From positions 1,302,001 through 1,366,000 of the forward strand of contig ML978125.1 of assembly GCA_010015805.1 (NCBI GenBank): a stretch of DNA of 64,000 nucleotides. Reading direction: 5' to 3'. The notes beneath the pieces were generated by a model. It did no database searches. It saw nothing but the letters and a program-made list of their open reading frames with translations, and was not told the DNA's origin. Positions 36,931 through 44,612 of this stretch are shown one piece after another. Each line of letters opens with the position of its first letter. Positions within the stretch are counted from its first letter, which is position 1. This stretch comes from Rhizodiscina lignyota. Its lineage: Eukaryota. The position numbers and the translations under genes are program-made.

Positions 36931-37419
36931 CCATACAAAGCATTTTGATTCTTTCCCCACTCCAATTGTACTTGTGAAGATTCTAAGTAATACGTTCTCC
37001 AGAGTGCCAGACTTTGACCAAGAGTACAAAAAATTTCAGAGTATGGGAGTATTGGACTCTAGCGTGATGTGTACAAGCTGCACTGCAAGGCTGGACTGAT
37101 TTCAAGGCTTCGAGGATGAAGGTTTGGGGTACCGCAGACAACGTAAGGTATCCTATCCACTCTTTCTAAAGTTGTATCCTAACATGTTAGATGGACATTA
37201 ACATATCTTCCAAGGGGTAATGAAGAAATTACGCCACCAAGTACATATTTGGATGGGGTTGTACCGAAGATTAGGTGGGGTCCGCGCCTGGTCTGGGTTC
37301 CAGCCAGCTACCTAGCCACCCCCAGCCACCAGCGTCCTCCACAGAACCTCGGGGTAATTCGCGCGCCGTTCGGCGTCGATTCAGCAGCTCTCTTTAGCAG
37401 TCATATACGCGCAAACTTT

Positions 37420-38419
37420 TCATATCTTATCATCCCACTCTTCTCGAGGCACGTATAGTCTCCCTCCTTCTCCTCGCTCTGTTGTGAACTCACGAAGTGT
37501 ACTGAAGTCGCGGCACGTATGCACCTGATCTGAGTCGATATACGGATGCTCGAGCCCGTCGAAATGTTTCTGTGGTATGAGAGTGGTGCTGCCATAACAC
37601 TGAATCTCCTGCCTTAGTAAGTCCAGACAGTGTTCTAAGGGCCGACAGTTGTCAGTTCTCTGGTTAAGGAATGAATGATTTCATGTCACTTACCTAAGTG
37701 CACCTGTCCGTGGATGTCAGTGTACGGGTAATAATCTTGTCCCAGGGCTTTTCGCAGCGCATTCTGCACTCATTTAATGTTAGAAATTGTCAAGTCCAAC
37801 GATATCGACCGTCTTACAAGACAATGGAGTGCGTGGAACATATCCAAACTGGTACGTCGTTAGTTAAAAATGATCTTTGGAACGGAATACGATGCACCAA
37901 CCCCGCAGTATAGCCTCCTCTGTATGGATCTCTATACATCACGTATTTGTCGCCCCAGGCCTTCTTCGCCTCTTCCTCTGATACAGAGAAATATCGGTCG
38001 CCAATTAAATCATGCCAGGCCCAATCGATTTCTCGGCTCGGCTCCCCGAAATACCTTCTATTCTCCGGCCATGGAGCATTCGAGTCCACTGGAGTTCTCC
38101 ATGCAGTTCCATTGTCAAAGAAGTGGGGACTTCCAGTGAACCGGACCCTTTTGAGCCCGACCTTCGTTGGCAACGTCATGTCCGTACCAAATTCCGTCTC
38201 GTATGAGCCTGAGGGTCCGGAATATGAGGGCGACAAAAAGAGAAAGAGCAAGACAGAAGCGAACAGAATATTGAGTATCCATGGAAGAGCGCTCAGCAAT
38301 GTTACGTCCCAGATCCGTGACCGTCTTCGTTCTTGTTGCTTAGTCTGTGGAGGCTCCTTCTCATGTAGCGATTCTTCGTTTTCATTGTTAATGTATTCCT
38401 CCAATCGTGAGTACTTCAT
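37420..38419 (-). CDS. DUF3328/UstYa-family HxxHC oxidase #1, 4 exons
   Basis: Exons 38419-37902, 37848-37818, 37763-37694 and 37634-37420. N-terminal TM helix; motifs YFGEPSREIDWAW, GLDMFHALHCLNALRK, HLEHCLDLLRQEIQC and HTCRDF. Confidence 0.92.
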
Positions 38420-39009
38420 TTTGCTACATGCGTGTCAAGTTTGTCGTCGAGTGTCAGAAATATCAGGTTGCAAGGTGTGCAGACCAAAACCTCGGGCAGT
38501 AGCAGTAAGAATGTGAAAAATGCGGCAGCCACTGGACATTTAAAGCAAAGTTCACTGACTTACTCAGCCTAGACAATCTGACAACGTCACTACGAACATC
38601 ACTGCACTTGGATCTTTCATCGACGGATTGCGATGCCGACGGCGCCCATCCCATCTCAATATTCACTTAAGGCTTGGCCTCACTCTGCGTTGGATTGATC
38701 AAGCAATTAGATGGCCACTGCTTGACCATCAATTAAGGGGTCTCATTTAATGTCATGAGGAGATAAATGGTGATTATATTGACTTTCTACATCTAACTTG
38801 CGCAACAGCAAGATTTCGAAATGACCATCTAATCTCCCCATCTAGACTGCAACTTCCATCACCGCTTGCTCCACCGATGGCACTTTGGTGGTTGAAGAGA
38901 TCGTCGGACCTGATGAATGCTTCAGCACGAGTCGTCCACTGCGTCGATTAAGGGCCGCCACATACCATCGATAAGTCAACCTGCGACCGTATGAGCAGTT
39001 TGAACGAGT

Positions 39010-39210
39010 TTAGTCGCCCTACAGATACAATTAGATTGTTTACTTCTCCAGCTGGTGTCAACGGATCGAACGTACATCGTCTTCAGGAATCGGTTCAAGG
39101 TGTCTGGCAATGGGGCCAGCAGCACCGACAGCGCGTTCCTCGACAGGCAGGGCGAGGCCCATGGACCCGAAGGCTAGAGTAACAAGGGCGATGCAGAAAG
39201 TGAACTTCAT
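39010..39210 (-). CDS. Small secreted peptide; candidate RiPP precursor (not in the ORF track)
   Basis: MKFTFCIALVTLAFGSMGLA-LPVEERAVGAAGPIARHLEPIPEDD, then a 57-nt GTACGT...CTAAT...TAG intron (39075-39019), then GD-stop, giving 47 aa. A at -3 of the ATG and an upstream TATAAA. The 3' structure is uncertain. Confidence 0.7.
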
Positions 39211-39275
39211 ACTGAATGTTCAAGAGAAAGTAAGGCTTTGTTGATGGCCGAGTCTGCATCGAATTCGCGACGTTC

Positions 39276-39281
39276 TTTATA
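39276..39281 (-). promoter_or_regulatory. TATA box of the small secreted peptide gene
   Basis: TATAAA on the minus strand 65 nt upstream of the ATG at 39210, followed by a CT-rich leader. Confidence 0.5.
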
Positions 39282-39780
39282 CACGGCTGAGGACTGCTCT
39301 CGACCCAGTCGACACCGCTGGCACCGAACCCATCGCCCACGAATCTGGAATATGGTCTATGAGATCTCAGAGATGTGGCATCTGATGAAGATTTTCGCTT
39401 GGTCGTAAGCTGATGTTTCAAGGGTGTTACATGTGGGACAATGTCACAATGATTGACAACACACAATTCAACTTCCGTTCAGCATTTCCGATCCTAACTC
39501 CATTGCTCATGCAGAATCAGGAACATGGTCAATTCTTGTCGCAGCAGTTTCAGCTCGACTGAGTTACATCACGAGAATTTTGATTTCTGAGAATTGAAGG
39601 AAATTAAATCTTATCTTGAACTAGCTCAATTTGGGAAAAGATCTTTTTATCATTTTCTCAGTTCTGCGATCTCTTCGGTGTCTGCAGTACTTCCCACTGC
39701 TCAATCACACTCCTCTGCCACAATCCATTTTTTCAGATTTTGTCTCGAGGTGTCAGGAGATTGTTGTCAAATCTAACAGA

Positions 39781-40824
39781 ATGAGATCTTTCTTTCGACA
39801 TGCGCAGTCACCGCTTTATCATCGTCTCGGAGATGGCGAATCTGAAAAGGAATCTGGGGAGGATGCCAATACCTTCACGGAACAAACATCACATGAGAGG
39901 AAATATCACGCAAAATTCTTAGCGGTCTTAAGCATTTCAAACATTGTCACTGCATTCATATCATGTCTATTTTGGAGGAGGGTTTTTACGCCCACATTTG
40001 GGTCGTTTTCGACTGGTTACGCCACTGACTTCGGTAAGTAGTTGAGGAGGAGTCTAGGATTAAGTCTAACGATGATTTTAGGACCTGCACGATCTCACAT
40101 TGAAGTTGAGCTTGTGCGATTCACAGGAGGGCCATCATTTCTTCCAAACGGCTCCATGTACATTCCGCATCCCACAGAGAAGAAATATGTCGGAGATCCC
40201 GAGCCCGAAATCGATCAGAATTGGGAGGAACTCACCTGGGGTACATAAATCACATTTCTTTTGCTTGATAAAGTGATTTACTAAATGTTGCATTAAGGTC
40301 GGTACATCCTCGCGACTGAAGAGGAAATGAAAGCCCAATGGCCGGACGAATGGGATCAGTTCTGGGAGGAAGCAAGAGGTGGATATGTTGTTGGATTTGA
40401 TATGTTCCATACTCTCCATTGTCTGGTATATTATCTCCTTCATAAGCTCAACATTGAAATGAATCCTCTGATTGGCATCCAGAATCGACTTCGACGAGAT
40501 TACTATCCAGACTACTATGCGATCAAGAATACAACCAACCACTGGCTTCACCGCGGTAAGTGGTATTCCGACAAGATTATAGGGAAATATATGTTGATTT
40601 CGACCTCAGACCATTGCATAGAACAGATCCGGCAGTACATCATGTGCTCTGGAGACATGACGCCTATACCAACGCGCTATTACCCGTCGAAGGATAGAAA
40701 TTACGTGGACTCCGACTATCCACACACGTGCAGAAACTATGAAAAATTGCATAATTGGGCAACAGAAAGGTATAATGGCAGTTCAGCGATACAGCCACAT
40801 TTCCGTGAGGAGCATGAAGAGTAG
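39781..40824 (+). CDS. DUF3328/UstYa-family HxxHC oxidase #2, 5 exons
   Basis: Exons 39781-40033, 40082-40240, 40298-40425, 40483-40555 and 40610-40824. TM helix; motifs YVGDPEPEIDQNW, FDMFHTLHCLNRLRR, HRDHCIEQIRQYIMCSGDMTP and HTCRNY. Confidence 0.92.
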
Positions 40825-41738
40825 ATAGAATTCACGATCCCAAGTCACAGTCACTTAATATCTGCTCTGAACACCGATACACATACTTTCGTTGTTATCT
40901 CTACACAAAGCAAATGGACTCCAAACATGGAAATTTTCCATATTGATTGAGTTTACTCAAAGATAAATCTACATCAACTGAAACCCATGTCAAATATCAA
41001 ACTCTGGAAAGCTGTTGGGCGGGGGTTGAATCTCTGCATGTTCACGACCCACAGTTACTTGAAAATAGACTGCCCTTAGTCGGTCAATCTCACATAATTT
41101 TAGTTTGCAAATGATTATAAAGTAGTCTATTTCTAAGAGATAGATTTTAAATTGCTGTGTTGCATCGTAGACGGCCTAAAGGGACCCCAGCATGACTCTA
41201 CTTCCGACGAATCGACCAAGAAGCCGCTATCCAGAAGAATTGACAATGTAACCTGCAACATCAAATGAGAATACTAAGATATGACGGAAATGTAGCTTAT
41301 GAGCCCTGGGGAATATCTTACTTCTTCCGGGCACATAACCGTTACAGTCTTTCGAGAGAAAAGCTGAAGACATGGCCCATCGGAAATATATATAACTCTG
41401 AGGCCGCCAAGTCGTCGGAAGAATTACTTCACATAGACTAGTCTAGGCCGAGCGCTGATTTTTCTGTTACAGAGCAGACTTTGGCGGCTCTCAGTCTACA
41501 GGCTCTGGTTTGCACATCTGATTCTTAATTCCGTGAGCAGGACATACCAGAGCAGCGAGCTTCTTTACAACCTGAATGTTACTCCCTGTATTCAAGGCCA
41601 TGACTAGAGAGCTTTATCATTGAAGCAGTATGACGCCCCAAATTTGTGGAATTCATGAACATAGACTAAGTCCATGCAGGAGCAGAAGGAACTTTTCCCG
41701 CTAGAGAACTAGATAGCAATATTCAAAGCCACACAGCA

Positions 41739-42449
41739 ATGTCGGACCCAAAGAAATCGGAGGAAAATCTCGCTTCAGAGGCCTTGTTGTCTCCCACAGA
41801 TTCTGGAGACGAGCAAGACTTCGAAATTTCTGGTCGAGGAGAGAAAGGCGTACTACGTTCTCCGCAAAGGCACCGTACGCTTAAACGCATAGTACAGCTT
41901 ATTGGTAAAACTGTTGTGGTGCTACTTTGCGTGTATGGTGCAATAGAATTGAGTATCAAGGCCCACGGCTCTATTCAGAAATGGCAGACGGCCAATGATC
42001 TCACCTTCTGCAACTGCGGGGACTCAACGGACGAAGCCATCTCCCTCGGTTGCGAGTACGTGCCTCTGGCTGCAGCATGGCTCCCGCCAAAGTGCCGGGA
42101 TGAAGAACTCGAAGCCGAATTCAATCGAGCTGGTCCAGATGGTTCATGGTCGTATTACAAAGATCGGAACGGCACGGCCGAGTACGATATCAGTGAGCTC
42201 GGATGGTTATCGGACACTGGGGAGCTGTACCACACAACAAGGAGATGGCATATCGTGCATTGTGTATACTACTGGAAGAAGCTGGCAAGGTCGAAACGGA
42301 CAGGCGTACCCATCGAGCCAAGGTATGATGGCGAGGGCCACATCGACCACTGCATGAAGACCTTCCTGAAGCCTGGGGATCGTGAGAAGATTGCAACTCG
42401 GCAAGGTGCATCGCTGATTTCTGATCACGCTGTTGTTACCGAAGGGTAA
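41739..42449 (+). CDS. Membrane-anchored HxxHC protein of a second subtype (DUF3328-related)
   Basis: Intronless 236 aa. TM segment, Cys motif CGDSTDEAISLGCEY...WLPPKC, then WHIVHCVYYWKK and HIDHC. Confidence 0.8.
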   Translation: MSDPKKSEENLASEALLSPTDSGDEQDFEISGRGEKGVLRSPQRHRTLKRIVQLIGKTVVVLLCVYGAIELSIKAHGSIQKWQTANDLTFCNCGDSTDEAISLGCEYVPLAAAWLPPKCRDEELEAEFNRAGPDGSWSYYKDRNGTAEYDISELGWLSDTGELYHTTRRWHIVHCVYYWKKLARSKRTGVPIEPRYDGEGHIDHCMKTFLKPGDREKIATRQGASLISDHAVVTEG

Positions 42450-42869
42450 AGATGATGAAATTTGGTAGATGAGAATAATACGGATGAGAAATGAGACTCA
42501 ACCATGATGTTGCAGAAATCCGGCAGTGCTTGTGTTTAGGCTAAAATTGCAACCGCGCTGCACTATGTCGAAAAGGGACACTAGCGCCAAATGTGCAAGT
42601 TCAAAAAAGGGGAGAAACCAGAGTGCATCTCAAAATCTTCCCCGTAAACTTCGGACTGATACAGTTAATCGGTAATAGCTTCATAAGGTAAGACACCTTT
42701 CAAAATTCGAGGTAGATAACCTGGTTTGGACGTGCACCGTACTATCGTATCGTAAACATGGCCGCCATGATTGATCGTCAAACCACCTGCTCAGTTTTGA
42801 TACCGCCCCGCTAGACGTCCGCTTGTCTTCCGATGATTATGTACCATCTCTCACAGTACTCAATCAGCC

Positions 42870-44612
42870 ATGCGAGAACGACCTGCACCAGATCTACAGG
42901 GAGAACGACAATTTGAAGTAGTCATTGGCATCCGCGGCAATGACAGGCAAGATGAGGAAAGTTCATCCTCAAGGACGGAAACTATGCGAGAACGTATTGG
43001 GCGTGTCAAGGAAGATGTCCGGTGTCTGACAGAGTTTTACAATATCGAGGTATCTTCTACGCGTGTGAGGAGACTCCAGCGATATTTTCGTCAGCAGTTG
43101 AGCGATTTGAAGGAGAACGAAGCGTTCGATAGATTCGATCAGTCCGACAAAATCGACTATTTGAACTTACGCAACTACCTGGAGCGCAACCTTCGACAAC
43201 TTGGTTTTGATGGAGACAAGAATGAATCTGCGATTGTCCTTCTTCCATTTGCAAGTCTTCTCATCCGGCTCTGTGAAGATCGGCAACAGATGAAAGCGAT
43301 AGATGCCAAGCGCGCAGCGGATGATCTGTTCGAAGCTGAGCGACAAGCCATAATAATGTATAAGGAGATAGAACATGGCCAACATCATGTCAGCAAGAAT
43401 GATGCATTTCGGGCTACCAATATACTACAGAAACTGCGCTCCCACCTTGCGGAATGGTTCCACTTCTTCAAGGGATACGATCCAATGTTCGACTGGTGGG
43501 TGCCAGAGCCGTATTATAAGCTTGATACGGCAATGGAAAGGCTGTCGCAGATCATACGGGAGATGCTTGTCGGTATCAAGCTCGGCGATGAGGATGCCAT
43601 AGTCGGAGAGCCGATCGGTCGAAAGGCACTACTCACCGAACTGGACGCGGAGATGATCGCTTACACGCCAGAGGAGCTGTTAAAGATTGCCGATCATGAG
43701 TACACTTGGTGTGAGGCAGAGATGAAGAATGCTTCCCAGGAGCTAGGACACGAGGACTGGCGTGATGCGCTTGAATATGTCAAGAACCTTTACGTTGCGC
43801 CTGGCCAACAGACCCAGCTCATCCGCGACCTCGCTGACGAAGCAACGGAGTACGTCAAGAAACATGATTTGATAACGGTGCCGCCCATTTGCGAAGAAAC
43901 ATGGAGGATGTTTATGATGAGTCCCTCGAGGCAGAAAGTGAACCCCTTCTTTCTCGGCGGCCGCACCATTCAAGTGTCTTACCCGACAGATACCATGGAC
44001 CATGAAGCAAAGATGATGAGCATGCGCGGCAACAACATTCATTTCTCCCGGTCGACGGTGTTTCATGAACTCATTCCAGGCCATCATCTGCAGATGTACA
44101 TGAACGATCGGCACCGTCCTTACCGCCGTCTATTCTCCACGCCGTTCTCGATTGAAGGTTGGGCTCTTTACTGGGAATTTATTCTGTGGGACAAGAAGTT
44201 CCCCGAGACGCCCAAGAATCGCATCGGCATGCTCTTCTGGCGTATGCACCGCTGTGCGCGCATCACGTTCTCCATCAAATTCCATCTGGGCCTGATGACG
44301 CCGCAGGAATGCATCGACCTGCTCGTAGATAAGGTAGGCCACGAGCGAGCTACAGCAGAGGGAGAAGTACGGAGATCATTCAATGGCGACTACAGTCCCC
44401 TGTATCAATGCGGCTATATGATCGGTGCATTGCAACTGTATTCATTGCGACAGGAGCTTCTGGGGCCCGGGAGGATGACAGAGAAGGAGTTTCACGACCG
44501 GGTCATGCGAGAAGGGCAGATGCCGATTGAACTCCTGCGTGCGTTAATACGGGAGAAACGAGTGACGCGAGACTACAAGCCGTCATGGAAATTCTACAAG
44601 AGTTTAGAGTAA
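42870..44612 (+). CDS. DUF885-family putative metallopeptidase
   Basis: Intronless 580 aa. STVFHELIPGHHLQ and SIEGWALYWE match the HExxPGHH and EGWALY motifs of DUF885 proteins. Confidence 0.85.
   Translation: MRERPAPDLQGERQFEVVIGIRGNDRQDEESSSSRTETMRERIGRVKEDVRCLTEFYNIEVSSTRVRRLQRYFRQQLSDLKENEAFDRFDQSDKIDYLNLRNYLERNLRQLGFDGDKNESAIVLLPFASLLIRLCEDRQQMKAIDAKRAADDLFEAERQAIIMYKEIEHGQHHVSKNDAFRATNILQKLRSHLAEWFHFFKGYDPMFDWWVPEPYYKLDTAMERLSQIIREMLVGIKLGDEDAIVGEPIGRKALLTELDAEMIAYTPEELLKIADHEYTWCEAEMKNASQELGHEDWRDALEYVKNLYVAPGQQTQLIRDLADEATEYVKKHDLITVPPICEETWRMFMMSPSRQKVNPFFLGGRTIQVSYPTDTMDHEAKMMSMRGNNIHFSRSTVFHELIPGHHLQMYMNDRHRPYRRLFSTPFSIEGWALYWEFILWDKKFPETPKNRIGMLFWRMHRCARITFSIKFHLGLMTPQECIDLLVDKVGHERATAEGEVRRSFNGDYSPLYQCGYMIGALQLYSLRQELLGPGRMTEKEFHDRVMREGQMPIELLRALIREKRVTRDYKPSWKFYKSLE

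Follow-up and report, generated by a model that had tools for sequence, protein, structure and literature searches.

Background

Among the described fungal systems, the nearest in kind to the locus reported here are the dikaritins, which include ustiloxin (UstA, with UstYa/Yb), asperipin-2a (AprA, with AprY), victorin and the epichloecyclins (PMC10512285, PMC9233826, PMC6514808). Their original definition, as summarised in PMC12048977, names five genes including a tyrosinase, a methyltransferase and a transporter or peptidase, and was later relaxed. Several DUF3328 enzymes per cluster are described for phomopsin (PMC10880069, PMC10512285), in which PhomYc, PhomYd and PhomYe lead to dehydro-Ile, dehydro-Asp and dehydro-Pro (PMC10880069), and the cyclochlorotine hydroxylase CctR is described as a lumenal, binuclear copper beta-hydroxylase (PMC12435403).

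The KEPs (Kex2-processed repeat proteins) combine a signal peptide with a short peptide released by Kex2; of the 9399 DUF3328 counts in a survey of 1461 genomes, 31.8% had a repeat precursor nearby, and the KEPs recorded beside DUF3328 genes include some that lack Tyr (34% without Tyr; PMC7329392). A manual search allowing one or more repeats has also been reported (PMC9632046). In lichens, the RiPP clans R1 and R2 are DUF3328 clusters without a repeat precursor and, as far as that account goes, no precursor was identified, a single core peptide being raised as one possibility (PMC12048977). AcaA of acalitide (81 aa) is a short single-core fungal RiPP precursor (PMC10840396). The open-access papers searched held no characterised DUF3328 product that is single-core or aromatic-free.

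The window (the whole stretch of 64,000 nt of Rhizodiscina lignyota DNA that was analysed) contains a small gene for a 47-residue precursor which, as far as the cited accounts describe these systems, resembles dikaritin precursors in its predicted ER signal peptide and Kex2-type processing, its several DUF3328 neighbours and its ED-like acidic motif, and differs from them in having one core, no repeats, no KR or RR and a mature part without Tyr, Trp or Phe. Tyrosinase and methyltransferase genes are absent among the neighbours scanned. The locus would function much as a dikaritin cluster does, yet it falls outside the usual definition because repeats, dibasic sites and an aromatic residue are missing. 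As in the phomopsin cluster there are several enzymes of this kind, three in our case, and the core contains the Pro, Ile and Asp that PhomYc, PhomYd and PhomYe oxidise; phomopsin is further described with an ether ring that joins Tyr and Ile, with a tyrosinase and with a precursor containing repeats. CctR shares the single membrane helix and the double HxxHC copper site, as well as the lumenal domain and the aliphatic C-H oxidation that we propose below, but its substrate is non-ribosomal (PMC12435403).

The signal peptide and the short peptide probably released by Kex2 are also those of KEPs; the precursor at locus L066 of the same genome is a typical KEP, whereas the peptide described here falls outside the KEP mining definition of PMC7329392 because it has no repeats. 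K2PP (Kex2-processed pro-domain) proteins, as described, have a short, disordered pro-region ending in KR, RR or aliphatic-x-x-Arg, a pattern that VEER (residues 23-26) fits, but in place of their folded mature effector domain only 21 residues without Cys remain. Compared with lichen clans R1 and R2, concrete unannotated single-core genes can be named here. AcaA differs in its disulfides and its protease-made lactam, and its description states no DUF3328 role (PMC10840396).

Anatomy and reality of the precursor gene

Re-reading of the minus strand placed the TATA box, ATG context, leader, 57-nt intron and final Gly-Asp-stop where the initial annotation had put them (Table 1). The start ATG lies at 39210 with A at -3, the leader of 20 residues is hydrophobic (best 9-residue Kyte-Doolittle mean 2.72) and the intron fits the introns modelled in UstYa clusters (46-68 nt, median 56, n=24). 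The product has 47 residues when spliced and 50 when unspliced, the latter ending as had been claimed. Counts of residues and repeats likewise bear out the description of one core lacking repeats, dibasic sites and Tyr/Trp: there are no repeats in the peptide or in the local DNA, nor any trace there of a lost tandem core, KR and RR do not occur, and neither Tyr, Trp nor Phe is found after residue 20.

Table 1. Positions of the features discussed (window coordinates unless a locus or contig is named)
Feature	Position	Strand	Remarks
TATA box, TATAAA	39276..39281	-	71 nt 5' of ATG
Exon 1, coding part, residues 1-45	39076..39210	-	coding-like in its own frame only
Predicted signal peptide, residues 1-20	39151..39210	-	heuristic: hydropathy, boundary between Ala and Leu-Pro
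VEER, residues 23-26	39133..39144	-	likely extended aliphatic-x-x-Arg Kex2 site; P4 Val, P2 Glu
PIAR	39103..39114	-	putative weaker second single-Arg site
Intron, 57 nt, GTACGT...CTAAT...TAG	39019..39075	-	branch CTAAT 11 nt before acceptor
Exon 2, coding part (Gly, Asp, stop)	39010..39018	-	TAA 39012-39010
Left UstYa/DUF3328 gene, 277 aa	37420..38419	-	PF11807; introns 37849-37901, 37764-37817, 37635-37693
Right UstYa/DUF3328 gene, 275 aa	39781..40824	+	PF11807; four introns; HTLHC, HRDHC intact
Third membrane-anchored double-HxxHC protein, 236 aa	41739..42449	+	UstYa-like; HIVHC, HIDHC
DUF885 gene	42870-44612	+	420 nt behind third enzyme
L066 repeat precursor, 103 residues	L066:3725-4036; G000:C15:539227-539535	-	unannotated; divergent from UstYa gene
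L036 single-core precursor	L036:7938-8117	+	Trp-x-Cys-Asp-x-Thr-Pro-Gly-Phe-Cys pattern
L074 single-core precursor	L074:4841-4999	-	Trp-x-Cys-Asp-x-Thr-Pro-Gly-Phe-Cys pattern
L073 metagenomic precursor, about 104 residues	L073:5726-6099	-	23% Asp, no aromatic residue

Whether such an ORF could arise by chance was addressed with a detector that requires a signal-peptide ORF, a TATA box and a purine at -3. In 3000 sequences resampled from the intergenic stretch with a Markov model it never fired (34 times when the TATA box was not required), and it fired at 20 of 39 UstYa loci of the same genome, the precursor's own included, as against none of 20 control loci placed at round coordinates, a contrast that is somewhat inflated because the detector was tuned on UstYa loci. 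Within the 9.9 kb around the three enzymes the precursor is the only match under the strict setting. Exon 1 scores 0.17 bits/codon, the median of the training coding sequence, and its other two frames and the intron score negative; the codon model is a weak one, limited in that the first exon of the left enzyme scores only 0.04. A contig from run X1 (depth 158) is identical over positions 37000-42800 and probably derives from the same source DNA, which excludes an assembly error and nothing more.

That the ORF is a chance product or a silent relic would be consistent with its absence from the annotated proteins and with the lack of homologues in the collections searched. No homologue of exon 1 was found by word-index search among proteins of 24-79 aa (such searches covered forms of up to 181 aa), and phmmer against 1.84 billion representatives gave three matches at E<=0.001, of 884-5783 aa, in which no homologue was recognised, the two inspected being unrelated repeat proteins. 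A two-row alignment of the peptide with the L066 precursor returned 108 candidates, none at E<=10; the best ESM Atlas match of the peptide (0.79) was bacterial and uninformative; the peptide had no match in Pfam, and no Rfam match was obtained; and in its own genome the peptide matched only itself at protein and DNA level. Its absence from the protein collection can be put down to gene calling, since its siblings are equally absent: the L066 precursor and all five other single-exon, single-core short precursors of this genome that were looked up are missing as well (0 of 5 found). Together with the empty resamples and control loci, this leaves hardly any credence for a chance ORF. The proposal of a small secreted-peptide gene beside DUF3328 enzymes is thus upheld by the anatomy, the chance tests and the intact neighbours; the unannotated gene is very probably real, it is likely to encode the substrate of the neighbouring DUF3328 enzymes, and there is a reasonable likelihood that the 47-residue form is the working one.

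Flanking enzymes and neighbourhood

An intact UstYa/DUF3328 gene stands on either side of the peptide gene, and the gene for a third HxxHC enzyme follows past the right one. Both flanking enzymes have one membrane helix; the left one retains HALHC and HLEHC, and the right gene is divergent from the peptide gene. The right enzyme corresponds to the annotated protein P0002 apart from a 57-nt GT-AG intron (window 40426-40482) which is kept in P0002 and gives 19 extra residues directly behind the first HxxHC motif, probably an annotation error. The third protein stays under the Pfam cut-off for PF11807, yet a function like that of DUF3328/UstYa proteins is suggested by its helix and by the presence of both HxxHC motifs. 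Its ESM Atlas matches are ascomycete clusters, the one at rank 18 bearing UstYa. Of the 12 places in its own genome that match it, 8 fall inside UstYa regions. This double-HxxHC family is widespread in ascomycetes and is missed by PF11807; it also occurs at L111 (C1:1583576), and three copies stand together at G000:C6:1681422-1684406 (L110), where neither a UstYa match nor, by ORF scan, a precursor was seen.

Farther out lie a TPR-bearing gene and the DUF885 gene. Of the 95 ORFs listed for positions 25000-55000, 14 neighbouring ones were scanned, and among these no tyrosinase, methyltransferase, NRPS or PKS was found, nor the transporter or peptidase of the original dikaritin definition. The DUF885 gene carries a His-Glu motif which we take to be zinc-peptidase-like, and its product could be a trimming peptidase; its solved relatives are all uncharacterised, and among 20 metagenomic loci from the group of the right enzyme none gave a DUF885 match. 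For DUF3328, a sequence search returned no solved relative.

Precursor candidates across the genome

With the PF11807 profile 89 exon matches were obtained in the genome and grouped into 36 regions (L032-L069), 28 of which hold a total of 29 precursor candidates with predicted exon structures, the other eight having no clear candidate. By our own reading, 14 candidates are single-core (47-69 residues), 13 have repeats and two are unresolved. A single core alone is therefore ordinary here, and the initial annotation, which had called the precursor atypical for it, has to be qualified on that point. The unusual trait is the lack of aromatic residues and Cys in the core: among the 28 candidates of this genome that were tabulated (L033 left out, the L049 model having a wrong acceptor), the 47-residue peptide is the only one without Tyr, Trp, Phe or Cys after the signal. 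Single-Arg sites recur among the candidates, even within the repeats of L043, and with single cores common and VEER fitting the Kex2 motif, the missing repeats and KR sites are not distinctive either. Cys-bearing single-core candidates were found at L036, L054, L057, L058, L064, L067 and L069.

Single-core and repeat precursors can be related to each other. The single-core candidate of L062 and the repeat candidate of L037 are homologous (0 of 1000 shuffles), as are their enzymes (tree support 98/92), and the single-core and repeat versions at L065 and L042 are likewise homologous (4 of 1000 shuffles). One single-core type is also kept across species: the precursor of L036 resembles that of metagenomic locus L074 (0 of 1000 shuffles), the L074 enzyme falls in the same clade as the L036 enzyme in the full-length tree, and each of these loci has UstYa and third-type HxxHC genes. 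In the UstYa paralogue P0040 (L045:4310-5166, plus strand) Asp replaces the second His of the first HxxHC motif; the roughly 25 kb surrounding it yielded no precursor, and the locus is possibly decaying.

Acidic precursors beside related enzymes

In the full-length enzyme tree (26 rows, two short models left out) the left enzyme forms one clade with the enzyme of L066 and that of metagenomic locus L086 (support 100/98), trees from the last exon only being poorly resolved. L066 is nearest to its exon 1 (E 3e-21, the next being 6e-10) and to its last exon (60%); whole-model scores are 532 against L066 and, only slightly lower, 503 against L042, whose precursor contains Trp and Phe. The L066 region holds a single UstYa gene and, divergent from it, a precursor whose six acidic units are of the QDEDGPL type. 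All six lack Tyr, Trp, His and Ile, and five are without any aromatic residue, Phe occurring in one. An acid-acid-Asp-Gly motif is common to this precursor and the peptide, and three acids followed by Gly occur in these two alone among 31 precursors, the motif having been picked post hoc; overall similarity between them is not significant (262 of 1000 shuffles reach the score).

Three of the 20 metagenomic loci, many of which are on contigs that are too short or transcript-like, showed precursors (L073, L074 and L088), and the L073 precursor lies divergently beside a UstYa gene from the wider group to which the right enzyme belongs. None of the three is orthologous to the peptide, and neither these loci nor the protein collections gave an orthologue, so conservation cannot point to the residues that matter. 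The initial annotation had made conserved homologues beside DUF3328 genes a condition; none turned up, the test being a weak one that covered protein collections and these 20 loci. L086 carries relatives of both the left and the right enzymes around a Pfam-confirmed M3 peptidase gene, and no precursor was seen in its 10.6 kb. Right-group UstYa genes adjoin an M3 peptidase gene at L086:4012-6107 and, by eye, at L075 after position 2500, where no precursor was seen either; a tyrosinase-like frame can be made out by eye at the end of L086.

Proposed product and chemistry

From the gene anatomy, the intact enzymes, the genome-wide association and the paralogue pairing, all observed here, we infer expression, secretion, cleavage sites, the enzyme-substrate relation and the chemistry, taking the capability of the enzymes from the literature. 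The proposal, which we regard as about evenly balanced between right and wrong, is a four-gene, dikaritin-like system with a single-core, aromatic-free precursor whose acidic product is oxidised by its neighbours. The precursor would enter the ER and lose its signal of 20 residues, after which Kex2 would cut behind VEER (residue 26) and perhaps also behind PIAR (residue 36), releasing an acidic peptide of 21 residues or of 11 (residues 37-47) with the end EDDGD. The extended Kex2 motif as described has an aliphatic P4 and Glu among the accepted P2 residues (PMC8528282); since VEER fits it, no other protease is required.

In the secretory lumen both UstYa proteins, together with the third HxxHC protein, would act as membrane-anchored binuclear copper oxidases on unactivated C-H bonds in the core, most likely those of Asp, Glu and Pro around the acid-acid-Asp-Gly motif. 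The outcome would be beta-hydroxylation or desaturation, possibly with a ring closed by a carboxylate C-O bond, and not the aryl-ether ring of known dikaritins. Oxidation of Asp, Glu or Pro is favoured by the L066 pairing, by L073 and by the phomopsin precedent. The initial annotation had suggested modification of His, Pro or Ile, of which Pro is retained together with Asp and Glu as the likelier targets, while chemistry on His or Ile is set aside because the six units of L066, the nearest paralogous system, have neither. That ED is described as a recognition motif beside the ustiloxin cores, and not as core (PMC6514808), counts against the acidic stretch being a core. A metal-binding role of the product is a guess from its composition.

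Alternative explanations

The same ED motifs flanking ustiloxin cores (PMC6514808) also suit an explanation in which a single-core precursor of the L062/L053 type lost its aromatic tail through a nonsense change after Gly-Asp, what remains being mainly leader and recognition sequence, with little or no product. L062 and L053 are the best matches among 30 other precursors (3 and 13 of 1000 shuffles), both are single-core with an acidic stretch and an aromatic tail and stand beside enzymes of the right-hand type, and the stop aligns with a Trp of L062, an Arg two places on being common to both. After correction for 30 comparisons, however, the best p is about 0.09, and the generic Leu-Pro start contributes part of the alignment score. 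When the stop is read through, the L062 score rises by only 3 (34 to 37), the codons past it score -0.16 bits/codon as non-coding sequence does and are not acidic, a change from Trp to TAA takes two steps, and all three enzymes are intact, as are the TATA box and splice signals; we consider truncation the strongest of the alternatives, yet unlikely. That the peptide is secreted and processed yet never oxidised, as a linear acidic signal or metal-binding peptide, with the enzymes acting on another substrate or the linkage being ancestral, appears quite improbable. Such a peptide would accord with the absence of the residues known to seed dikaritin rings, with the eight UstYa regions lacking a clear candidate and with reports that the reach of DUF3328 enzymes extends to non-ribosomal products, cyclochlorotine among them (PMC12435403), but it leaves aside the tight nesting among three enzymes with a divergent promoter layout, the genome-wide pairing of TATA-plus-signal ORFs with UstYa genes and the absence of NRPS and PKS genes among the ORFs scanned.

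Two further explanations concern the C-terminus. The initial annotation had raised a hidden aromatic core behind an RR site, reached by continuing past the TAA, and both the open frame with Tyr, RR and Trp 3' of the stop and the second GT-AG pair of typical length (38965-38910) exist as it described them. No canonical CTRAY branch site lies near the acceptor of that pair, however, and no intron of 45-120 nt ending in CAG or TAG connects exon 1 to the frame. The downstream segments score -0.16, -0.05 and -0.04 bits/codon, and the TAA, which was to be checked, recurs in the second assembly and is no assembly error, but that assembly probably represents the same source DNA. Read-through is thus very unlikely and the hidden core is unsupported; with its flanking frames negative, the pair at 38910..38965 (minus strand) was rejected as a coding intron and could at most be a 3' UTR intron. 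Another C-terminus might be reached from exon 1, either unspliced or through a 95-nt intron (acceptor 38981; 55 residues with one Cys) that has a CGCAG acceptor with CTCAT 10 nt upstream and whose product scores 36 against L062, compared with 34 for the 57-nt form. Its length falls outside the range of the 24 modelled introns, negative values are obtained for its exon (-0.31 bits/codon) and for the intron when translated in frame (-1.14 bits/codon), and the 57-nt form alone raises the match to L053 from 19 to 29, so that these other ends can be given only very slight probability.

Implications for fungal precursor mining

Mining for fungal RiPPs, as described in the literature cited, depends on repeats and dibasic sites, and single-core genes escape it. 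In this genome roughly half of the DUF3328-linked candidates proved to be single-core, and the five single-exon ones looked up were absent from the protein collection, which points to a simple remedy for missing precursors that can be tested. The product of the 47-residue precursor would show DUF3328 chemistry independent of an aryl ring, because its mature part has no aromatic residue or Cys, and L066, with one enzyme and an acidic precursor, could serve as a minimal setting for studying aromatic-free chemistry; types like L066 may be listed in the KEP tables of PMC7329392. A broader and rather doubtful extension is that this locus, L066 and L073 represent an undescribed branch of fungal ribosomal peptides, whose carboxylate-rich cores without aromatic residues are modified by copper DUF3328 enzymes, and that tiny unannotated single-core genes like this one supply the substrates still missing for a large share of those fungal DUF3328 genes, two thirds of the total, with no repeat precursor nearby. 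If true, the products would carry hydroxy- or dehydro-Asp or rings closed by Asp/Glu, e.g., as ribosomal metal chelators.

For the origin of repeats, the L062/L037 and L065/L042 pairs provide a natural comparison. At L060:6459 (minus strand) another candidate of 47 residues is found, in which the intron starts 135 nt past the ATG, as it does here, and the last exon codes for three residues.
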